A DNA stretch of 41,995 nt from Nitrospirota bacterium (lineage in GTDB: Bacteria > Nitrospirota > UBA9217): assembly GCA_035623825.1 (NCBI GenBank), contig DASPSR010000055.1, positions 1-41,995 on the forward strand, read 5' to 3'. The notes under the pieces were generated by a model. It was not told the origin of the DNA and did no database searches. It was given only the letters and a program-made list of their open reading frames with translations. A program made the position numbers and the translations under genes. Every line of letters starts with the position of its first letter. Positions within the stretch are counted from its first letter, which is position 1. Below are positions 26,332-36,490 of this stretch, in pieces.

Positions 26332-27243
26332 TCAGGAGCTCGCCGTTTGTTCCTTCGGGATGGCCACGCTCCTGAGCGCGTTCATGGGGCCAAAGGCTTT
26401 AAGTCGCGCGAGCTGCCGTCCATCCCGGACATAGAGGGATCCGGCAAAGGCGAGGGAGTTGAATGAAATATCCTCGAAATGCTCCCTCGACCGCGGGACG
26501 AGCATCATCCACTCGCGCGTCACGAGGAGGCAGTAGGGCATGGATTGGCGAATGAGGCCGGTTTCCGCTGGAGCCGTCATGCCGACTCTCTTCAGCATGG
26601 CAGAGTAGAGTTTGAAGGTCTCTTGTGCTGCGCGCCCCGGGTTGGAAACAAGATCCCGGTCCAGGCGTACAAAGGCATGGAGGAAGGGAAATCCCGGCAC
26701 GAGGCCCGGGTCGCCCGCTTCGGCAAGCAAGGGCTCGATCGGGACTGACGGACCGACCGGAGCCATGGGGAGGGGCACCATCTGGAGGTGCTTGTGCTGC
26801 TGGCTTGCTCCAGCCTCGCGGCCGCCGTTGTAGAAGCCGAGACCGTCGTATTCGGCCATGCAGAGCCAGAGAGCCTCGAGGTCTTTCAGGTTCAGCAGGG
26901 TGTCCTGATCCTCGAAATGCCGGGTGATGATGAGCAGGTGGCGTTCCATCACATTGAACTTGTTCAGGATCGCCTGGTGCGTATCCGTGATGGAGGCGAC
27001 GACGAGGTCGTCCTCAGGCGGGAGAAAAACGTTCGCATTCTTCCCTGACACGGTCGCCGCCTCTTGCGCCTTCCGCGCCTCGTCTTTAAGCCGCAGACTC
27101 GCCAGGACCCTGACGAAGAACCGGATCCCGCCGTCCTCGATGAACGTATAGTCCGTGGGGACCGGCCTCAGCGCGCCGGTTCCAAGCGCGTGATCCGTGG
27201 CCCTCTCGATGCTCCTAAGCAATGTCCCTTTCACGAGAAGCAT
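26332..27243 (-). CDS. ATP adenylyltransferase / Ap4A phosphorylase
   Basis: LNKF, FYNGGREAGASQQHKHLQ (HxHxQ), VPRS and NSLAFAG. Confidence 0.9.
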   Translation of the reverse strand: MLLVKGTLLRSIERATDHALGTGALRPVPTDYTFIEDGGIRFFVRVLASLRLKDEARKAQEAATVSGKNANVFLPPEDDLVVASITDTHQAILNKFNVMERHLLIITRHFEDQDTLLNLKDLEALWLCMAEYDGLGFYNGGREAGASQQHKHLQMVPLPMAPVGPSVPIEPLLAEAGDPGLVPGFPFLHAFVRLDRDLVSNPGRAAQETFKLYSAMLKRVGMTAPAETGLIRQSMPYCLLVTREWMMLVPRSREHFEDISFNSLAFAGSLYVRDGRQLARLKAFGPMNALRSVAIPKEQTASS

Positions 27244-27428
27244 GGTTGAACTCCCGGTGGAGCGCAGATGAACAACAGGAATGTGAAAACGTACAGAGAA
27301 GGGGATTATAGCATACGATGGGGAAAAAGCGAACAGGGCGACGCGCGAATCAGATGCATGGCCCTACTGAGGATCCCCGGAGCGGCCGGACAGGCGTCGG
27401 GCTCAATGGAGAGATTTGCCATCTTTTG

Positions 27429-29549
27429 TCATGCGTAAAATCCCTTGCCGCCTTTGGCCATCTCCACCAGGCATCTCGGCGGCTCGAACCGTTCCCCGTG
27501 TTTTTTCGCGTTTCCTTCGAGCTTCTCGACGATGATCTTCGAACCGATCATGTCCGCATACTTGAGAAGACCGCCGCGGAAGGGCGGGAAGCCGATGCCG
27601 AAAATAAGCGCCGCATCGAGCAGGTCGGGCCGGTCGACGATCTTGTCTTCGAGGCAGAGCGCGGCCTCTTTGATCATGCGCAGTATTGCCCGGTCGACAA
27701 CCTCCTCAGGGCCGATCCTTTCTTTGCCCCTTGCTTCCGCCGAAATCCTGCGAGCGAGAGATATGTCCGGCCCGACCCGTCTTCCGCCTTGGTATTCATA
27801 GAAGCCCCTGCCGTTCTTCCTGCCGTAATAGCCGTCCCTGTAGAGCGCGCCGAGAAGACCGGAAGGCCTCACGCGCGCCCCCAATCCCTGATGCAGGATC
27901 TCGGAGACCTTGTGCGCAATGTCGATGCCGATCTCATCGAGCAGGATGAAGGCGCCCATGGGCATGCCGAACTGGAGGAGCGCCCAGTCGATTTCCTCGA
28001 TCGCCGCGCCCTGCTCGAGCATCGCGACTGCTTCGCCGAGGTAGGGCATGAGGATACGGTTCACGAGAAATCCGGGGCCGTCGTTCACGACGACCGGCAG
28101 CTTCCCGAGCTTGCGTGAGAGCGTCGCGATGGCCGAGACGGTCGGGTCCGATGTTTTTTCGCCCCGCACCACTTCAACGAGCGGCATCCTCTCCACGGGG
28201 TTGAAGAAATGCATGCCGACGACGCGGTCGGGACGTTTCGATGCCGTCGCCATCTCTGTGATCGAAAGCGACGACGTGTTCGAGGCAAAGATCGCATCCT
28301 CCCGTGCCACAGCCTCGAAATCACGGAGCACGTTCTTTTTGATGTTCATGTCCTCGACCACAGCCTCGACGGCAAGGTCGGCCGTGCCGAAGCCGGTGTA
28401 ATCCGCGGCTCCGGTGATCCGGTCGAAGCCGTCACGCGCCTGGAGCGCGGTCAGGATCCCCTTCTTCTGCCGCTTGCTGAATATCTGCCAGGCCTCTTTG
28501 AGTCCGGCACCCACGGCCTTGGTACTCACGTCCTTCATCCTGACGGCGACGCCTCTTTCAGCAAGGAGCTGGGCAATGCCGCCGCCCATGACGCCGGCGC
28601 CGAGGACTCCCGCACGCGATATTCCGTAGTGAGAAGGATGCGGGTCTCTCTTGAGCGTCTCGTTCAAGTAGAAGACGGAGATGAGGTTCTTCGTCACCTC
28701 GGTCGGGGCCAGCCGCCCGATCATCTTGGCTTCATTGACATACCCCGCTTCCTTGCCGTGTGCCATCCCGTAGCGGATGGATTCGAGCGCTGCGAGCGGG
28801 GCGGGGTAGTTGCCGCGCGTCTCCTTGAGCGCGCTCTTCCTCGCCATCCGGTAGACGAGGGGTCTCGTCAGCGGACTGCCCTCGATCAGCCTGTTGGTGA
28901 GCGGATGGCTCGTCCGGACCCTCGCGGGACGTGGTCTCCCGATCGCCTTCTTGGCCGTCGCAAGGGCGACGCTGAGCAGCGTTTCTCTATATGTCACTTC
29001 ATCGGCAAGCCCTATCTTCCGCGCTTGCTTCGGATAGACCGACTTTCCGCTCAGGATCATGTCGATCGCGTTCGCAAGTCCCACGAGGCGCGGCAGCCTC
29101 TGGGTGCCGCCGAATCCGGGGATGATGCCGAGCCTTACCTCAGGCAGCGCGAGAGCGGTCCTCTGGTCGTTGCTGATGACCCGATAGGTACAGGCGAGGG
29201 CAAGCTCCAGCCCTCCGCCCATGCACGGGCCGTGGATGGCGGCCACCGTGGGAAAGGGGAGCGCTTCCAGTTTGCTCAAGGTCGCCTGGCCATGGCGCGC
29301 GAGCCGTTCGCCCTTCCCGGCGTCGGCAATATCTCGTATCTCGCCGATATCGGCGCCGGCAATGAAGCTTTCCTTTTTGCCGCTCCGGAACACGAGCGCC
29401 TTGATCTCCTTCTTCGCGGCAAGTTCGTCGAGCAGGGCGTCGAGCTCAGCCATCACCGACGCGGTGAGCTTGTTGACCTTCTCTCCCGGCAGATCGAAGG
29501 TGAGGACCGCGATCCCATCGGTGTTTATCACATAGCTGAAGGCCGACAT
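27429..29549 (-). CDS. fadJ: Fatty acid oxidation complex alpha subunit (enoyl-CoA hydratase / 3-hydroxyacyl-CoA dehydrogenase)
   Basis: [45 protein letters not shown] and PGFLVNR. Confidence 0.93.
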
Positions 29550-29647
29550 TGTAGATCCCCTTGACGAGATGTACAGGATAACGCGGCGGTCGGCCGATCC
29601 CGGGCTCTCCCCGGATTATCCTGTGACCCCGTCCACTCTCCTTCGCG

Positions 29648-30931
29648 CTATCGTCTCTCGACGATCATCGCGCCTCCCTGTCCGCCGCCGACGCACATGG
29701 TTGCGAGCCCCACGGTCAGGCCGCGGCGCTCCATCTCCTTGAGGAGCGTGAGCACGATCCGGAGTCCCGACGACCCCACGGGATGGCCCACGGCAATGGC
29801 GCCCCCGTTCACGTTCATGATGTCACGCCTGAACTCGCCGATCGGCTCCTCGCCCGGCAGATGCTCGGCGAAATACTCCCGGGATACCGCAGCACGCTCC
29901 ACGGCGATGACCTGCGCGGCAAAGGCCTCGTTCAGCTCGATGAGCTCGATGTCCGTCATCTTCATTCCGGCCAGCTTCAGCACCTTGTGCGTCGCATAGA
30001 GCGGGGTGATCCCCATGCGCGAGGGATCGAACGCCGCGAAAGCAACGGCCTTTATGTACCCGAGAGGCTTGTACCCCAGTTCCCTGGCCCTGTCCGCGCT
30101 CATGATGAGGGCCGCGGCGGCGCCGTCCGTGACAGGTGACGAGTTTCCCGCCGTGACCGTCCCGTTTTTTCTGTCGAAATAGGGTTTCAGCTTTTCGAGC
30201 GCCTCCATGGTCTCGTCCTTCCGAGGCCCGACGTCTTTTTCCAGCGGCTCGAACTTCGGCGGCACATAGAGGGGAATCACCTCATTCTTGAACTTTCCGG
30301 CCTCGAAGGCGCGCGTCCAGCGCCGATGGCTTTCGAGGGCGAACTCGTCCTGTTCTCTGCGCGCAATGCCGAAATCCCGTACGAGCACTTCTGCGGTGAG
30401 GCCCATGATCAGGCCGGAGATGGGGTCGGTGAGGCCTTCCAGGAGGCCGACGACCGGCAGCAGGTCGCGCGGCCTGAGCGAGACGACGGCTTTGAGCCCT
30501 GCGCCGAAGGTCTTTGAGCGCCTGAAAGCGGTGATCGCGTTCTGAAGCCTCTTCGTCATCTGGAAGGAGTAATTCGACATGGACTCCACGCCGCCCACAA
30601 GCACGATCTCATTCATGCCGGCGATGATCTGGGCGTAGGCGCTCGCTGCCGCCTGCATGCCTGAGGCGCAGTTCCGCTGCACGCTATAGGCCGGAATGCG
30701 TTCTGACAGGCCGGCGCGCAACGCGATGACCCGGGCGATGTTTGCGGCCTCGGCAGGCATTCCCGCATTGCCGACGATCACCTCGTCGATCGCCAGCGGA
30801 TCGACGCCGGTCCGCATGATGACCTCTTTCACGACGGCAGCTCCGAGATCCACGGCCGGAACGTCCTTGAGCACCGTGCCGGCCTTGGCGTAGGGAGTGC
30901 GGAATCCTTCAATGATGACGATGTCTTTCAC
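29648..30931 (-). CDS. fadI: Acetyl-CoA C-acyltransferase (3-ketoacyl-CoA thiolase)
   Basis: NCASG, NEAFA, GHPVG and CVGGG. Confidence 0.93.
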   Translation of the reverse strand: MKDIVIIEGFRTPYAKAGTVLKDVPAVDLGAAVVKEVIMRTGVDPLAIDEVIVGNAGMPAEAANIARVIALRAGLSERIPAYSVQRNCASGMQAAASAYAQIIAGMNEIVLVGGVESMSNYSFQMTKRLQNAITAFRRSKTFGAGLKAVVSLRPRDLLPVVGLLEGLTDPISGLIMGLTAEVLVRDFGIARREQDEFALESHRRWTRAFEAGKFKNEVIPLYVPPKFEPLEKDVGPRKDETMEALEKLKPYFDRKNGTVTAGNSSPVTDGAAAALIMSADRARELGYKPLGYIKAVAFAAFDPSRMGITPLYATHKVLKLAGMKMTDIELIELNEAFAAQVIAVERAAVSREYFAEHLPGEEPIGEFRRDIMNVNGGAIAVGHPVGSSGLRIVLTLLKEMERRGLTVGLATMCVGGGQGGAMIVERR

Positions 30932-31054
30932 TTGTTACCTCATCCTTTTTCGATCGATGAACGGATGCGGCCGGTAAACGTCAACCGGTGATCCAGTTTC
31001 AAGTCGAGACGTTTGAAATTCGTCATTCACCATCATTAGCTCGGCGCTGCGGGT

Positions 31055-32749
31055 TCAGGTCTTTATTTTTTTCATCTCCTCATCCCTCAGCACGCGCCTC
31101 AATACCTTGCCCACGAGCGTCTTCGGGAGCCGGTCGCGGAACTCGACCTCCTTCGGCACCTTGAACTTCGAGAGCAGCTGCTGGCAGAACTGTATGATTT
31201 CCTCGGCGGTCGCGGTCTCGCCTTCCTTGAGCACGATGTACGCTTTGATCTCCTCACCCAGGAACTCCTGCGGGATCCCGACGACGACGGCTTCCTTGAC
31301 CTTACGGTGCATGAAAAGGACCTCTTCGACTTCCCTCGGGTACACGTTCTCGCCTGCGGTCTTTATCATGTCCTTGATCCGGTCCACGATGGTGAAGTAG
31401 CCATCTTCGTCCATCGTGGCGATATCGCCGGTATGGAGCCACCCGCCGCGAAGCGCGTCCGCCGTCTCCTCGGGTTTATTCCAGTACCCTTTCATGACCT
31501 GCGGGCCCCTTATGACGAGTTCCCCGGCCTCGCCCACAGGCAGGTTTTTTCGGCCGGTCTCGATGTCCACGATCCGGGCCTCCGTGTCCGGCCAGGGCAG
31601 GCCGATGGTGCCGCTCTTCCGCCTGCCGAAGATGGGGTTGGCATGGGTGACGGGCGACGCCTCGGACAGGCCGTAGCCTTCGACGATCCTGGCGTTGGTC
31701 AGGCGTTCGAACCGCTCCTGCACTTCGTGCATGAGCGGGCCAGCGCCGCTGATGGCCACCTTCAGGGACGTCAGGTCATGCCTGCGGATCGTGGGGTAGT
31801 TGCCGATCGCGAGGTACATGGCCTGGACGCCGGGGAATATCTCCGGCCGGTACTTCTCGATGAAGCGGAGCACCTCCCTGGTATGGAACTTCGGGAGGAG
31901 GATCAGTTTCGCCCCGATAAGAATGCCGAGATTCATGGCTATGGTCATTCCGTAGACATGGAAGAAGGGAATGACGCCGAGGATGACCACTTCTCCTTCA
32001 TTGTGGAGCGTGAGCCAGGCCTTGCTCTGCACCGCGTTCACGACCAGGTTCCGGTGGGTGAGCGCGGCCCCCTTCGGCACTCCCGTTGTTCCTCCGGTGT
32101 ACTGGAGGAGCGCGGTATCGTCAGGCGAGATGGCCGCGTTTACGGCTGCAGTTGATTCAGGCCTCATGATGGCCCTGAAATCGTAAACCGGGGGGACCCT
32201 CCTTACGCTGACCCACTGTTTGTCAATTTTCGCTTTCAGGGGGTACAGCACATTCAGCGGAAACGGCAGAAAATCCCTGATGCCGCAGAGGATCAGGCGC
32301 CTGACGCCGGTCCTCGGCAGGACAGCGGAAATGACGGGATAGAACATATCGACGGCCACGAGCGTCTCCGCGCCGCAGTCCCTGAGCTGGACCTCCAGCT
32401 CATGCTCGTGGTAGAGGGGGTTTGTCGGGACGGCGACCGCGCCCACGCGAAGCGTCCCGTAGTAGGCGATGACCATCTGCGGGATGTTCGGCAGCATGAG
32501 CGCCACCCGGTCTCCCTTCCCGACCCCCAGGCGCGAGAGGGCATGAGCGAAGCGGTTCGCGAGCGCATCGAGCTCCGAATAGACGATCTTCTTCCCGTAG
32601 AACAGGAGCGCCGTGTGGTCCGGGAATTTCAGTGCGGTTTGGTGGAGGACCGTCCCCAGCGTTACGTCGGGGTACTTGAGGGTAGGCGGGACGCCTGCTT
32701 CGTAGAAACTGATCCAAGGGTGTTCGGTGTAGGACATAACGGCTGCCAT
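31055..32749 (-). CDS. fadD: Long-chain fatty acid-CoA ligase
   Basis: YTGGTTGVPKG, EGYGLSE, HTGD and PKTLVGK; GGAGGT RBS before ATG 32749. Confidence 0.93.
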   Translation of the reverse strand: MAAVMSYTEHPWISFYEAGVPPTLKYPDVTLGTVLHQTALKFPDHTALLFYGKKIVYSELDALANRFAHALSRLGVGKGDRVALMLPNIPQMVIAYYGTLRVGAVAVPTNPLYHEHELEVQLRDCGAETLVAVDMFYPVISAVLPRTGVRRLILCGIRDFLPFPLNVLYPLKAKIDKQWVSVRRVPPVYDFRAIMRPESTAAVNAAISPDDTALLQYTGGTTGVPKGAALTHRNLVVNAVQSKAWLTLHNEGEVVILGVIPFFHVYGMTIAMNLGILIGAKLILLPKFHTREVLRFIEKYRPEIFPGVQAMYLAIGNYPTIRRHDLTSLKVAISGAGPLMHEVQERFERLTNARIVEGYGLSEASPVTHANPIFGRRKSGTIGLPWPDTEARIVDIETGRKNLPVGEAGELVIRGPQVMKGYWNKPEETADALRGGWLHTGDIATMDEDGYFTIVDRIKDMIKTAGENVYPREVEEVLFMHRKVKEAVVVGIPQEFLGEEIKAYIVLKEGETATAEEIIQFCQQLLSKFKVPKEVEFRDRLPKTLVGKVLRRVLRDEEMKKIKT

Positions 32750-32879
32750 GCGGCACCTCCACAGGCGCCACTGATGTCCCCCATGCTCGGTAGACAGGCA
32801 TACCGGGTATTTCGGACAAGACAGGTCTTCAATTTCTCCTGATTTTATTATAGCATAACCGGACAACGTCCGTTCGGGC

Positions 32880-34130
32880 CTAGCTCGCCCGGGAGTGGAA
32901 ACGGCGTCTGTGAGGATTTGGATGGCGGGGCGCGGCGAGTCGTTCCCTGTCGCTCTTCTGCTTCTCTTCGGCGGTCCTCCGGATCTCCCGGACGTACATG
33001 CTCTCGTCGGCCCACTCGACGGGGATCTTCTGGCCGATGTACTTTTCGATGTCCTCCAGTGAATAGACGTACTCCTCGTCCGCGAGGCTCATGGCCTTGC
33101 CGGTCGCTCCGGCGCGGCCGGTTCGGCCGATGCGGTGCACGTAGTCTTCGGCGTCCTGGGGCAGGTCGTAGTTGATCACATGGGTCACGCTTTCCACGTG
33201 AATGCCGCGGCTCGCCACGTCGGTGGCGACAAGGACCGGGAGCTTGCCTTCTTTGAAGTCCGCGAGCAGCCGCAGCCGCTTCTTCTGCACGATGTCGCCG
33301 GTGATGGCCGCTGCTCTCCATCCGTTGCGGCTCAGGCGCTCGACGACCATGTCGGCGGCGCGGCGGGTGTTCACGAAGATGAGGCTGCGCTCCGGCGCTT
33401 CGTGTTTGAGGATGCCGAGCAGGAGGGATATCTTCTCATGCTTCCCCACGTGATAGAGGACCTGTTCCACGCGCTCCACGGTGACCTTCTCGGGCGTGAT
33501 CGAGATCTTTTCAGGGAGGTTCATGTGCTCGTAGGCGAGTTCCATGACGCGGTATGACAGCGTTGCGGAGAAGAGCATGGACTGGCGCTTGGTGTAGGGC
33601 GGCATCTTCCTGATGAGGTACCGAAGGTCGTCAATGAACCCCATGTCGAACATGCGGTCCGCCTCATCGATGATCAGGTAGCGGGTCTTCTTGAGGCTGT
33701 AGATGCGCTGCTTGTAGTAGTCGATCAGCCTACCCGGGGTGCCGATCAGAACGTCGACCCCCTTTTGAAGGGTGACCATCTGCTTCTGGTAGTCGATGCC
33801 CCCGTAAACGGCGAGGAAGCGGAAGCCCGTGAACCTGCCGAGCCGTTCTGCTTCGTGGTAGATCTGGTCCGCGAGCTCGCGGGTCGGCGCGATGATGAGG
33901 GCCTGCGGAGAGTTCCCCAGGTCTTGGACCGGGTTTCTGATCATCCTGGCGAAGAGCGAGATGAGAAAGGCCGCGGTCTTGCCCGTGCCCGTTTGCGCCT
34001 GCGCTGCTATATCTTCACCGCGTACGGCGCGGGGTATCACCGCTTCCTGCACCGGGGTGCACACGGTGAACCCCGCGTGGTCGATGCCCTGTCTCACTTC
34101 GTAGGGCAGATCCAATTCACTGAAGTTCAT
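32880..34130 (-). CDS. rhlB: DEAD-box RNA helicase (RhlB-like)
   Basis: Q motif, AQTGTGKT, PTRELA, TPGRL, DEAD, SAT and HRIGRTGR. Confidence 0.9.
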   Translation of the reverse strand: MNFSELDLPYEVRQGIDHAGFTVCTPVQEAVIPRAVRGEDIAAQAQTGTGKTAAFLISLFARMIRNPVQDLGNSPQALIIAPTRELADQIYHEAERLGRFTGFRFLAVYGGIDYQKQMVTLQKGVDVLIGTPGRLIDYYKQRIYSLKKTRYLIIDEADRMFDMGFIDDLRYLIRKMPPYTKRQSMLFSATLSYRVMELAYEHMNLPEKISITPEKVTVERVEQVLYHVGKHEKISLLLGILKHEAPERSLIFVNTRRAADMVVERLSRNGWRAAAITGDIVQKKRLRLLADFKEGKLPVLVATDVASRGIHVESVTHVINYDLPQDAEDYVHRIGRTGRAGATGKAMSLADEEYVYSLEDIEKYIGQKIPVEWADESMYVREIRRTAEEKQKSDRERLAAPRHPNPHRRRFHSRAS

Positions 34131-34605
34131 ACATCTCCGATCGTTGTTGAGGACAATATGTCAACGAACTGTGTGGCCTAGTATACCATAAGTGTCATGG
34201 CGAGACAAAGAGAAATTATGTCCCGCCGTCCTTGTGGAGCGGCGCAGGCGTTCGAAGGTTGACTTTTTAGTCGCATGCTCGAACAGAAAAACATGAATTC
34301 TCCAAAAGGGAAGCAGAGCGCCGCGGCGCCCGAGCCGGCCGGTCGTCCGGAAGATACAGGCAGGGAGAGGAAATATGCCGCCTTTTGAAGGGAAATTCTC
34401 AAAAAAGTAATTTGGGTATCACCATTTATTTTTTGATGCATTTTTCCTGCTGCTGTTTGGTCTCCACCCGGTCCCGGACGGTGTACCAATAAAAATTGGA
34501 AATGCCATAGATTAACCATTAATTTTTTGACCACTATTATTTGCGTCGATTCTGCTGTTGATAAATTGTCTAACCCATCGAAAAATAATTTTTTAATTTT
34601 TCCTG

Positions 34606-34635
34606 TTGACAAAACATACACTCTTGTTGTATATT
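34606..34635 (+). promoter_or_regulatory. Sigma70 promoter with AT-rich upstream region
   Basis: TTGACA-18 nt-TATATT. Confidence 0.7.
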
Positions 34636-34654
34636 TGTCCACGAGGTGAACAAA
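34634..34654 (+). promoter_or_regulatory. Putative autoregulatory operator overlapping the start site and RBS
   Basis: Inverted repeat TTTGTCCAC-GAG-GTGAACAAA (one mismatch) directly before the GTG of a wHTH protein. Confidence 0.55.
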
Positions 34655-34655
34655 A

Positions 34656-35222
34656 GTGCTGACAAAACTCTTCTCTTCTACGAGAGCGGAGCTTTTAGGC
34701 CTGTTCTTTAACAATCCGGATGACAAGTTCTACTTAAGAGAGATCGCGCGTCACATCGGAAAAGATGCGGCGGGGATCAAGCGGGAACTGGACAACCTGG
34801 TCAAGATCGGGCTTCTGGCAAAAGAGAAGCGGGGAGTGCAGAAATACTACTTCGCGAATAAAAGCTCTCCCATCTTCTCGGAGATGAAGGGGCTCATCTT
34901 CAAGACCACGGGAGTGCAGGGCGCAATGAAGACGTCGCTGTCCCGGTTGAAGGGCGTCAAGACAGCGTTCATCTACGGTTCATTCGCGAAAGGATCGGAA
35001 AAAGAGGACAGCAACATCAATCTCATGGTGATCGGCCAGGCGAACATCACGGAACTGAATGACATGGTGATGGGGCTGGAAGAAAAGCTGAAGAGGGAGA
35101 TCGATTATCTGGTCTTCGACGAGCTGGAATACCGGAAACGCAAGGACTCCAAGGACCCGTTCATCCGAGAGTTACTGAAAGGCAAGAAGATTTTCCTGGT
35201 AGGCAGGGAAGATGAATTATAA
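34656..35222 (+). CDS. ArsR-like wHTH fused to a minimal nucleotidyltransferase (MNT) domain, with catalytic DxD replaced by NxN
   Basis: LFSSTRA...YLREIAR...IKRELDNL wHTH; YGSFAKG...SNINLMVIG where the family has SDIDL. Confidence 0.88.
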   Translation: MLTKLFSSTRAELLGLFFNNPDDKFYLREIARHIGKDAAGIKRELDNLVKIGLLAKEKRGVQKYYFANKSSPIFSEMKGLIFKTTGVQGAMKTSLSRLKGVKTAFIYGSFAKGSEKEDSNINLMVIGQANITELNDMVMGLEEKLKREIDYLVFDELEYRKRKDSKDPFIRELLKGKKIFLVGREDEL

Positions 35223-35697
35223 TGCGCTCAAAGAAATGGGGATCGTTGAGGAACGTACCGCCGAGATCGCCGAGGTCATCGCGCTGGTGACGCGGGCGGA
35301 ACGGGACTTGGCAACAAGCAGGCTTCTGCTGGACAAGGATGTTGAGTGGGCGTTTGTTGCCTCCTATCAGGCAATGGCCCGTTCAGCGAGGGCGCTCATC
35401 CTGTCCGAGGGGTTCAGGCCCAAGGGGGTCAGGAGCAGGGATGCGCACAAGACCGTGGTAACGGCGTCGGGCGTCATCCTCGGGGAACAGCACAAGAGCA
35501 TGATCAACAAATTCGACCGCATGCGCAGAAAATACCAAAGCTTCATGGAAGAGGCAGGACGCGTCATATCCAAGTACGAGGCAGGACAGGCGATAAAGGA
35601 CGCCGAGGAGTTCCTCGCCTTGGTGAACGGCAGGATCAAGGAAAAGTACTCGCAGATGTCCTTGCTGAATGATGTCCCTCAGCTTGTTTCAAGATAA
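35212..35697 (+). CDS. HEPN-domain protein
   Basis: AERDL, YQAMARSARAL...GFRP...H, DRMRRK and AEEF pattern; overlaps the MNT gene. Confidence 0.85.
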   Translation: MNYNALKEMGIVEERTAEIAEVIALVTRAERDLATSRLLLDKDVEWAFVASYQAMARSARALILSEGFRPKGVRSRDAHKTVVTASGVILGEQHKSMINKFDRMRRKYQSFMEEAGRVISKYEAGQAIKDAEEFLALVNGRIKEKYSQMSLLNDVPQLVSR

Positions 35698-35744
35698 GGC
35701 CGCTTGAGTAAAAACGCGGTATGCCGAAAGGGGGTGGACAAATA

Positions 35745-35804
35745 ATGGCAGCCAAGAAGAAGGCCAAGAAGAAGGCAAAGAAGAAAGCCACCAAGAAGAA
35801 GTAG
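35745..35804 (+). CDS. Lysine-rich microprotein 1 (MAAKKKAKKKAKKKATKKK, 19 aa)
   Basis: GAAAGGGGGTG RBS 8 nt before ATG; 12 Lys; TAG stop. Confidence 0.75.
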   Translation: MAAKKKAKKKAKKKATKKK

Positions 35805-35833
35805 CTTTCATACGGTGTCCCAAGACGCGGGAC

Positions 35834-35863
35834 CGCCGGGGGCTTGATGCCCCCGGCGTATTT
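35834..35863 (+). terminator. GC-rich hairpin after microprotein 1 (weak terminator, attenuator or stabiliser)
   Basis: CGCCGGGGGC-TTGAT-GCCCCCGGCG followed by TATTT. Confidence 0.55.
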
Positions 35864-35953
35864 AAGACAACCCATCACCACGACCGATGTGCGGGCTTCA
35901 TACATAATCTCATTTTCATCCTTATATCCCATGATGAAAGGGGGTGAAGATAC

Positions 35954-36010
35954 ATGGCGACGAAGAAAGCCCCGGCAAAAAAGGCGAAAAAGACCACAAA
36001 GAAGAAATAA
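35954..36010 (+). CDS. Lysine-rich microprotein 2 (MATKKAPAKKAKKTTKKK, 18 aa)
   Basis: Same GAAAGGGGGTG RBS 7 nt before ATG; 9 Lys; TAA stop. Confidence 0.75.
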   Translation: MATKKAPAKKAKKTTKKK

Positions 36011-36061
36011 CTTGGCCCGGCCCTCACAGGTCATAGAGTCCGATGATGGCATTGAAGCTCT

Positions 36062-36093
36062 ACCACGAAGAAGGTCTTCGTGGTTTTGTTTTT
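36062..36093 (+). terminator. Rho-independent terminator
   Basis: ACCACGAAGA-AGG-TCTTCGTGGT followed by TTTGTTTTT. Confidence 0.85.
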
Positions 36094-36163
36094 GAGAAGC
36101 GGATATACGGATGCGGCGCATTCTCCCTGCAGGAGGGCCTGCGCGGCGAAAGAAGACAGCACC

Positions 36164-36490
36164 ATGCGTAAACGGAACTACATGAAGGTTCAGCGCAGTC
36201 GCAGGACCGTGGGCAGGAAAAGAGTGCTCTTCGCGGCAGGTATCCTTCTTGCCCTCTATCTTCTGACGTCGTACACCCTGGGCGAAATGGGGCTGGTGAA
36301 GTATTACCGGATGAAGGTGCAGTATAACGCTCTCACCGAAGAGATCGCGACGCTCAGGCAGGATAACGCCAGACTGATTCGCGACGTCCACGCCCTCAAG
36401 ACCGACCCCGCCTGCATCGAGAGGATCGCACGGGATGAACTGGGACTTGCGCGGCAGGGGGAGATAGTGTACTATTACGACAAGCCCTGA
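36164..36490 (+). CDS. ftsB: Septum formation initiator FtsB/DivIC family
   Basis: One TM, GEMG, a coiled coil, and IERIARDELGLARQGE. Confidence 0.85.
   Translation: MRKRNYMKVQRSRRTVGRKRVLFAAGILLALYLLTSYTLGEMGLVKYYRMKVQYNALTEEIATLRQDNARLIRDVHALKTDPACIERIARDELGLARQGEIVYYYDKP

Follow-up and report, generated by a model that had tools for sequence, protein, structure and literature searches.

What is a gene pair that looks like a toxin-antitoxin (TA) module doing among the housekeeping genes of an uncultured Nitrospirota bacterium, and why is it followed by genes for tiny lysine-rich peptides? The question is raised by a unit at positions 34556-36094 of the window, that is, of the whole 41,995-nucleotide (nt) stretch of contig DASPSR010000055.1 analysed here. 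An initial annotation had claimed that this unit consists, in order, of a promoter with an operator, a gene for a winged helix-turn-helix (wHTH) domain fused to a minimal nucleotidyltransferase (MNT) domain, a HEPN gene, a small open reading frame (smORF1), a hairpin, a second small open reading frame (smORF2) and a strong terminator. That order stands, and all the elements it listed are present, each at its own position (Table 1). The reading favoured here, at a probability of about 0.55, is a domesticated pseudo-TA autoregulator that is co-expressed with free-standing polycationic microproteins resembling histone H1 tails or PAKKA repeats. It builds on the anatomy of the unit, the loss of catalytic residues from both proteins, purifying selection on its four open reading frames (ORFs) and a conserved linkage between the pair and the smORFs, each of which is shown below.

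As read from the alignments, the catalytic centre of the wHTH-MNT protein is lost. The protein matches the Pfam families Polbeta (2e-08) and NTP_transf_2 (9e-06), and an AlphaFold model built on 13 relatives (mean predicted local distance difference test score 86.4) shows an ArsR/SmtB-like winged helix fused to a minimal nucleotidyltransferase fold. In Foldseek comparisons, the N-terminal ~85-90 residues of the model match SqrR, SmtB and HlyU (E ~1e-3, TM(target) 0.6-0.7), and the C-terminal half matches the MntA antitoxins 6m6u, 7bxo and 8xeh; searches of the PDB with single sequences of the pair gave weak matches only. The GS of the nucleotidyltransferase motif is kept and its DxD has become NIN. 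The motif reads GSFAKGSEKEDSNINL within YGSFAKGSEKEDSNINL, and HMMER aligns the NIN to the catalytic DID of a Sulfolobus nucleotidyltransferase (SDIDI; PDB 2rff).

The motif was surveyed in 80 related loci, one genome per species, with 50 from the family of the window's genome and 8 from outside the phylum. Within the family it reads SN[IV]N[LI] at 47 of the 48 loci that cover it and GNINL at the other one; the matches at the two further family loci, L071 and L079, are cut before the motif. Other Nitrospirota families carry SDVNL, NEIDL or NDIDL with the GS loop lost, or xVDL, and in the family designated f2 the lost GS loop reads YGISAKV. The 8 homologues outside the phylum (Terriglobia, Acidobacteriaceae, Elusimicrobiota, Gemmatimonadota) retain GS..SD[IV]DL. 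Conservation is concentrated elsewhere in the protein: 15 of its 19 invariant residues lie within the first 86 residues, which form the wHTH half. At L079, where the match ends at about residue 116, the HEPN gene and both smORFs are still present.

The HEPN protein, of the UPF0332 type, matches PF05168 at 1.2e-11 in Pfam, and by the same kind of comparison its catalytic motif is lost as well. The place of the canonical R[NE]xxxY is taken by YQSFME in this family and by AQALD or TENFIK in other Nitrospirota families. Outgroup HEPN proteins from outside the phylum read RNISAY or RNLAEY at the aligned place, and PDB entries 9xbd and 2hsb read RNRSDY and REESDY; the profile search against the PDB gave weak matches (E ~0.008) that served only to place the motif. 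The hexapeptide RSRDAH was considered as an alternative Rx4H motif and rejected as a catalytic motif, because it lies in a variable, three-residue lineage-specific insertion and its histidine is not kept, being glutamine in 7 of 16 aligned family orthologues. The C-terminal tail of the protein is conserved (KYSQMSLLNDVPQLVSR). Both active sites had been described at the outset as altered, and so they are: SNINL stands against the SDIDI of 2rff in one protein, and the R..Y/H motif is gone from its canonical place in the other. The two proteins may still form a complex; a predicted complex scored 0.68, with two unrelated control partners at 0.53 and 0.54, and this score is used neither for nor against binding.

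The two smORFs are free-standing, each with a very strong Shine-Dalgarno site and its own stop codon. When 42 distinct family sequences were aligned with MAFFT without constraint, the fraction of sequences differing from the majority base at codon positions 1, 2 and 3 was 0.016, 0.001 and 0.219 for smORF1, and 0.051, 0.005 and 0.290 for smORF2. Variation in the smORFs is thus nearly confined to the third codon position, which marks them as translated genes. All four ORFs of the unit are under purifying selection. The alignment count replaced a pattern-based count of synonymous and non-synonymous changes, which was partly circular because the pattern itself fixed residues; the same partial circularity applies to the KKAPAKKAKK core, invariant in 47 smORF2 sequences collected by pattern. 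An exact look-up of six lysine-rich ORFs of 26-74 amino acids (aa) in a collection of 15 billion proteins found none of the six, the 18-19-aa peptides lying outside the look-up. In the same collection the wHTH-MNT protein is named only 'nucleotidyltransferase domain-containing protein' or 'predicted transcriptional regulator with HTH domain'. The number of smORFs varies from one to three by tandem duplication (three at L060, L063, L069 and L072-L074), and versions of 54-87 aa, rich in lysine and alanine, occupy the same position 3′ of the MNT gene in other lineages.

The linkage between these peptides and the pair was counted in 151 genomes sampled evenly across the phylum. Of these, 52, from 11 families, carry an orthologue of the wHTH-MNT gene at E ≤ 1e-15. 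A Lys/Ala-rich ORF of 14-87 aa lies just downstream on the same strand in 51 of the 52; in the remaining genome (G086) the contig ends 9 nt after the gene. Counted by locus, a smORF is present at 70 of 72 Nitrospirota loci, the other two (L040 and L071) being cut by contig ends; the smORF of L076 escaped the filter and was found in the locus comparison. No lysine-rich ORF was found downstream of the homologues at the eight loci outside the phylum (0/8), nor beside the canonical-DxD paralogues of the same genomes (0/5; L023, L024, L138, L139 and L140). These counts are descriptive rather than statistical, because the two genome samples overlap and the genomes are related. An arrangement that recurs at 70 of 72 Nitrospirota loci is not due to chance, and since the pair and the smORFs have stayed together in much of the phylum, they are probably a working unit. 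The synteny comparison suggested by the initial annotation thus carries the link to lysine-rich smORFs far beyond the genus.

The arrangement also holds where its surroundings differ. Orthologues at 55-60% identity in other families have different flanks, often with a convergent lpxC downstream, and are still followed by one to three lysine-rich smORFs. Thermodesulfovibrionales-type orthologues (44-47% identity) have no HEPN gene, and in all 14 of 14 such loci the smORF begins 39-71 nt after the MNT stop codon, which indicates that HEPN is dispensable. In the window, the start of the HEPN gene overlaps the stop of the wHTH-MNT gene by 11 nt, and 47 nt separate the HEPN stop from the start of smORF1.

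Within the family the pair is inherited vertically. Of 24 sampled family genomes, 22 carry the wHTH-MNT gene, in addition to the window's own genome, and a second, evenly drawn sample has it in 27 of 27; each genome holds a single full-length copy, and identities run from 80 to 96%. Where loci were compared, the identity of the wHTH-MNT protein is above that of FtsB (52-79%) and at least that of RhlB (76-93%) and of a GH57 enzyme (76-78%). The order rhlB, MNT-HEPN-smORFs, ftsB-GH57 is retained across the family. The surrounding 18 kb encode a TPR protein, an Ap4A phosphorylase, beta-oxidation enzymes, an acyl-CoA synthetase, the GH57 enzyme, a Big_2 protein and GlyQ; no mobility genes were found from 24 kb to 42 kb of the window, where the neighbours are metabolic or housekeeping genes. 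The annotation of this interval agrees with the earlier statement that the unit sits between the housekeeping genes rhlB and ftsB without mobility genes nearby. By these comparisons the pair behaves as a core gene and not as a mobile TA module, and the proposal of domestication holds: motif loss together with presence in 27 of 27 family genomes describes a degenerate, vertically inherited MNT-HEPN module and not a mobile, active TA system. The whole unit recurs at 94% identity on a 4.9-kb contig labelled Betaproteobacteria (L027; JBLMWN010000264.1), which is probably a mis-binned Nitrospirota contig.

The region upstream of the pair holds a candidate operator. A sigma-70-type promoter, TTGACA-18-TATATT (34606-34635), matches the consensus at 11 of 12 positions and is overlain by an inverted repeat, GACAAA-N20-TTTGTC, whose arms are written GTTGACAAA-N20-TTTGTCCAC; the 38-nt form GTTGACAAA...TTTGTCCAC occurs once in the 3.24-Mb genome. 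A box, TGTTGATAAATTGTCTAAC, lies ~45 nt upstream, and its 14-nt core is likewise single-copy in the genome. When 45 distinct family sequences were aligned, the -35 and -10 elements, the TTTGTC arm and the box TGTTGATAAATTGTCTAAC were all nearly invariant. Another Nitrospirota family has a perfect repeat, GTTGACAA-N23-TTGTCAAC, at the same place; GTTGACAAA is kept upstream of the MNT gene in all families compared, and Thermodesulfovibrionales-type loci keep TTTTTTGTTGACAAA and add two or three CGTTCACAAAA repeats upstream. The conserved inverted repeat over the promoter and the invariant residues in the wHTH fit autoregulation through the wHTH, and the wHTH-MNT protein may bind the candidate operator. 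The arrangement resembles that of ArsR/SmtB wHTH repressors such as SmtB, SqrR, HlyU and NolR, which share the N-terminal fold and, as expected of an autorepressor, an inverted repeat over their own promoter; here, however, the sequence matches fall below cut-off and the partner domain is a pseudo-nucleotidyltransferase. The suggestion that the module was repurposed as a transcriptional regulator thus finds partial backing, in that a conserved inverted repeat over an invariant promoter would suit an autoregulating wHTH protein.

Table 1. Elements of the unit and its two flanking genes, with positions in the window
Feature	Position	Strand	Remarks
RhlB-like DEAD-box helicase gene	32880-34130	-	flank of the unit
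Upstream box TGTTGATAAATTGTCTAAC	34556-34574	+	repeats GTTGAYAAA / TTGTC half-sites; possible second operator site
Promoter and inverted repeat (candidate operator)	34605-34642	+	-35 TTGACA 34606-34611; -10 TATATT 34630-34635
Shine-Dalgarno GAGGTGA of the wHTH-MNT gene	34643-34649	+	followed by GTG start; TTG in some relatives
wHTH-MNT gene	34656-35222	+	GTG start; 188 aa
HEPN gene	35212-35697	+	161 aa; UPF0332/PF05168 type
Small hairpin GCCGC-loop-GCGGT	35699-35720	+	two bases after the HEPN stop; stem conserved, loop variable
Leader and Shine-Dalgarno CCGAAAGGGGGTGGA of smORF1	35724-35738	+	invariant in family alignment
smORF1	35745-35804	+	19 aa, MAAKKKAKKKAKKKATKKK; isoelectric point (pI) 11.0
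Two hairpins, GTCCC..GGGAC and CGCCGGGGGC-loop-GCCCCCGGCG	35817-35864	+	3′ of smORF1, then TATTTA tail
Shine-Dalgarno GAAAGGGGGTGA of smORF2	35936-35947	+	
smORF2	35954-36010	+	18 aa, MATKKAPAKKAKKTTKKK; contains PAKKA unit; pI 10.9
Intrinsic terminator ACCACGAAG-loop-CTTCGTGGT and TTTTGTTTTT	36062-36094	+	10-bp stem 36062-36084, T-run
ftsB (FtsB)	36164-36490	+	other flank of the unit

Whether the smORFs are transcribed together with the pair bears directly on the favoured reading. A promoter scan of the coding strand of the window and of L115 found no promoter-like site 3′ of the MNT promoter, and two weaker promoter-like sites in the window, at 34512 and 34558, lie upstream of it; the scanner also failed to flag the MNT promoter of L072. 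Among sequencing runs, one RNA run matched 7% of sampled words, and contigs came from relatives only, so that the run carries no information on the ends, strand or level of a transcript. One of these, a peat metatranscriptome contig of a ~95% relative (21 differences in 427 nt), covers 35335-35761, so that it continues for 64 nt beyond the end of HEPN and reaches 17 nt into smORF1. As evidence of co-transcription it is a weak hint only, because assembled contigs are what was kept and an RNA library can carry DNA. On the favoured reading, the pair and the smORFs would share a transcript.

Such a transcript would carry several structured elements. Hairpins analogous to the small one after the HEPN gene precede the leader at loci of other families. 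Of the two hairpins that follow smORF1, the second spans 35834-35858, and 5 of the 10 predicted pairs of the post-smORF1 hairpin show compensatory double changes among 33 sequences. As its tail is only TATTTA, this hairpin may either terminate leakily or stabilise the mRNA. At the end of the unit, the terminator stem CCACGAAG..CTTCGTGG and the TTTTGTTTTT tail are invariant in the window and 41 family loci across genera, with a variable loop, a degree of conservation above what termination alone would seem to need. Rfam gave no family at gathering score across the whole window and, at E up to 5, only three chance-level matches within 34100-36300; no tRNA or tmRNA was found in the region. Since these scans are negative, the smORF region corresponds to no known RNA.

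The mechanism proposed here has two parts. In the first, a domesticated MNT-HEPN pair with both centres dead would survive as a DNA-binding, ArsR-like wHTH/pseudo-MntA protein, joined in this lineage by a pseudo-HEPN partner. In the second, one to three genes would supply free peptides of 14-30 residues, rich in lysine, alanine and proline, that resemble detached histone-H1-tail or 'PAKKA' repeats. A dimer of the wHTH-MNT protein would bind the inverted GTTGACAA/TTGTCAAC half-sites that bracket its own -35 and -10 elements, and this binding would set the transcription of the whole unit. The regulator genes, with GTG or TTG starts and overlapping ORFs, would be weakly translated, and the flanking GC hairpins would stabilise or partly terminate the message. 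Because the smORFs have near-perfect Shine-Dalgarno sites and flanking hairpins, the peptides are proposed to be made in large excess. As soluble polycations, they would have nucleic acid or some other polyanion as their target.

Several observations weigh against this reading. The Pfam and NCBIfam HTH matches of the wHTH-MNT protein are all under cut-off, and in a genome of the same genus (G001, C6:919389-919953) its gene is split into two overlapping frames, through either a frameshift or faulty assembly. With pI values of 9.5 (wHTH-MNT) and 9.4 (HEPN), both proteins are basic, a property that speaks against their sequestering the peptides simply by charge. The post-smORF1 hairpin, which has a short U-tail, may terminate transcription before smORF2, and the spacer 5′ of smORF2 is AT-rich, unconserved save for the Shine-Dalgarno site, and could hide a weak promoter. 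In addition, smORFs occur without the pair. In family f9 an MNT orthologue is present in 0 of 18 genomes, yet the smORF pattern matches in 12 of the 18. Six of the seven f9 loci inspected hold smORFs of 18-27 aa (e.g. MATKKAAKKPAKKAAKKK) in unrelated neighbourhoods; the seventh encodes a 155-aa Lys/Ala-rich protein. A Thermodesulfovibrionales-type locus (L116) likewise keeps a smORF beside lpxC without an MNT gene.

The f9 copies speak for the principal alternative, namely that the smORFs are autonomous and highly expressed, and that the pseudo-TA pair is an unrelated neighbour whose adjacency is ancestral and not selected. The six stand-alone smORFs (L105-L108, L123 and L124) have the leader CGAAGGGGGGTGGAG, as in MNT-linked loci; they also share AATTTTACTCGCCGCTCAAACTCTGATATAC as a conserved block further upstream, and their stop codons are followed by a GC hairpin that lacks a U-run. 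One genome has two copies. A promoter of their own is a possible reading of the conserved TTTACT-17-TATACA-like block, which the promoter scanner did not flag. At L116 a smORF persists without MNT, and in the window, too, each smORF has its own Shine-Dalgarno site and a hairpin after it. Against mere adjacency, strand, order and proximity persist despite changed flanks, HEPN loss and changes in copy number, in the 51 of 52 genomes and 11 families described above. The gaps are short both with and without HEPN, the promoter scan flagged nothing 5′ of the smORFs in the window or L115, and the loss of catalytic residues coincides exactly with the presence of smORFs. Independence of the two parts is therefore judged somewhat unlikely, while being the most serious competitor of the favoured reading.

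What the f9 loci do establish is that the smORF family predates the pair or reaches beyond it. Since f9 holds stand-alone copies without an MNT orthologue, the peptides are not merely the regulator's output. The initial annotation had presented them as just that; the linkage to the pair on which this rested is conserved, and the exclusive role as output falls with the stand-alone copies. A third lysine-rich smORF, MACGKKCGTKKTTTKKTAKKK, with two cysteines and no adjoining MNT gene, is encoded in the window's own genome on contig C67 (3314-3379, minus strand), where it has a strong Shine-Dalgarno site, GAGGAGGTGA, and a clean intrinsic terminator.

The autoregulator model can be carried further, and it is conceivable, albeit rather doubtful, that free polycationic microproteins are a major cellular component in Nitrospirota, that most lineages brought their synthesis under the dead TA module, and that this module became a feedback sensor. 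The wHTH-MNT/HEPN complex would then respond to polycation load or to a nucleotide signal and adjust the shared promoter accordingly, with the peptide replacing the toxin. A partnership at the protein level is improbable. Here the MNT-HEPN proteins would bind the peptides as a chaperone, buffer or sensor, and the peptide would stand in for the toxin in a TA-like operator feedback. The gene order, a DNA-binding 'antitoxin' followed by a small partner, and the tight linkage recall TA logic, and the retention in this family of the GS nucleotide-loop residues and of the HEPN C-terminal tail suggests a surviving binding pocket. Opposed to this are the basic character of both proteins (pI 9.4-9.5), the loss of the GS loop in f2, and a peptide length that ranges from 14 to 87 aa, unlike a specific ligand.

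An ordinary active type VII (HepT/MntA-like) TA or PDC-M05 defence module with small ORFs nearby by chance is very improbable. The structural matches to MntA, the overlapping genes and the PADLOC matches (PDC-M05A at 9e-55, M05B at 4e-17) would all suit such a module, but the catalytic residues of both proteins are lost throughout the clade, the NCBIfam MntA_antitoxin equivalog scores 26.6 bits against a cut-off of 60, and the pair, single-copy and syntenic among housekeeping genes in 27 of 27 family genomes, does not resemble mobile TA or defence genes. Equally hard to credit is the idea that the smORFs are poly-lysine ribosome-stalling leader peptides for attenuation of ftsB, which could draw on the hairpins and terminator 3′ of the ORFs and on the slowing of ribosomes by runs of lysine codons (PMC9207662), but which conflicts with a downstream gene that varies (ftsB, convergent lpxC or unrelated genes), with hairpins that follow the stop codons and do not overlap the ORFs, with conserved non-lysine residues such as APAKKAKK, and with growth of the ORF to 54-87 aa in some lineages.

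Comparison with known systems shows which features of the unit are new. The type VII TA system HepT/MntA of Shewanella oneidensis (6m6u, 7bxo, 7aer) and the HEPN-MNT pair 8xeh likewise have an MNT gene followed by an overlapping HEPN gene. The unit described here differs in that both the DxD and the R..H/Y motif are lost and an N-terminal wHTH is fused to the MNT domain; it is also single-copy, vertically inherited and set in a housekeeping context, lysine-rich smORFs follow it, and HEPN is absent in some lineages. Both proteins match the PADLOC PDC-M05 models over their full length (M05A at 9.1e-55, residues 3-188; M05B at 3.8e-17, residues 1-149), so the wHTH-MNT and HEPN architecture is already catalogued. 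A 2026 survey (PMC12988326) describes PDC-M05 as a TA-like candidate that is enriched among archaea and whose antiviral role is unconfirmed. The present pair differs in its degenerate catalytic residues, in lying outside any defence island or mobile context, in being universal within its family and in its link to polycationic smORFs. Where HEPN domains lack conserved polar residues, they have been proposed to be binding domains (Anantharaman et al., 2013; PMC3710099), and the portions of that paper available for this comparison hold no mention of a pair with smORFs.

The peptides have their own parallels. The tails of mycobacterial Hlp/HupB and Ku, Deinococcus HU, AlgP and chlamydial Hc2, of the PAKKA or H1-like kind, have the same Lys/Ala/Pro composition, and a PAKKA unit is present in smORF2. 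The PAKKA-type lysine-rich tails of mycobacterial Ku and Hlp and of Deinococcus HU bind and bridge DNA (PMC3553676), and the H1-like AlgP associates with polyphosphate granules (PMC9239181). Unlike these tails, the peptides encoded in the window are free-standing at 18-19 aa, have no folded domain, are unannotated, and have genes coupled to a pseudo-TA regulator.

Tiny, extremely basic and presumably abundant nucleic-acid binders are also represented by Coxiella ScvA, adenovirus mu and the ribosomal proteins bTHX, bS22 and bL37. Those proteins have specific sequences and not repeats; the present peptides range from 14 to 87 aa depending on the number of repeats, which speaks against a fixed site on the ribosome. 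Two further classes of small peptide were considered and rejected: a precursor of a ribosomally synthesized and post-translationally modified peptide, as no modifying enzymes lie nearby, and an amphipathic antimicrobial peptide, as there are no hydrophobic residues.

The literature covered describes no degenerate wHTH-MNT/HEPN pair linked to lysine-rich smORFs, and supplements, which lay outside that coverage, may hold gene lists; with the same limit on supplements, it describes no lysine-rich microproteins in Nitrospirota. The initial annotation knew of no description of such a system, which is upheld for the degenerate form linked to smORFs and has to be withdrawn for the wHTH-MNT and HEPN architecture as such, given its place in PADLOC as PDC-M05. 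What is distinctive here is the coupling of lysine-rich microproteins to a dead TA module. If the favoured reading is right, the locus would be a clear natural example of a TA or defence-candidate pair (PDC-M05 / type VII) that lost both active sites and was then fixed in the core genome, and automatic 'defence system' calls for such genes, which PADLOC models match at 9e-55, would be misleading. It also exposes a conserved family of lysine-rich proteins of 14-30 residues that gene callers have wholly missed. These peptides may be abundant counter-ions of the nucleoid, of RNA or of polyphosphate in Nitrospirota. To our knowledge, almost nothing is known of how bacteria control free polycations, and the genomic coupling offers an entry point through a candidate operator, its regulator and peptides that lend themselves to synthesis.

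Further lysine-rich proteins were seen in the course of the locus comparison. In two families the peptides carry a single C-terminal cysteine (..KKKKC, ..KKKRC or ..KKGKC), and the first smORF of L072-L074 ends in ..KKGKC. H1-like Lys/Ala-rich proteins of 155-198 aa also occur in the phylum (among L111, L119, L109, L117 and L120), and two proteins of 124 and 140 aa from the same group of loci combine a lysine-rich N-terminal tail with a conserved C-terminal region, ..PEFMKPLNVSPALARVVG...

Two observations concern the minus-strand side of the unit. The 525-nt AT-rich intergenic region between the divergent helicase and MNT genes (34131-34655) contains several promoter-like sites on both strands. 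Beyond the helicase gene, a minus-strand cluster at 26332-32866 encodes the Ap4A phosphorylase, a FadB-like enzyme, a thiolase and the acyl-CoA synthetase. The FadB-like enoyl-CoA hydratase / 3-hydroxyacyl-CoA dehydrogenase gene occupies 27429-29549, and two plus-strand ORFs without Pfam matches, at 27318-28118 and 28209-29564, are probably its shadows.

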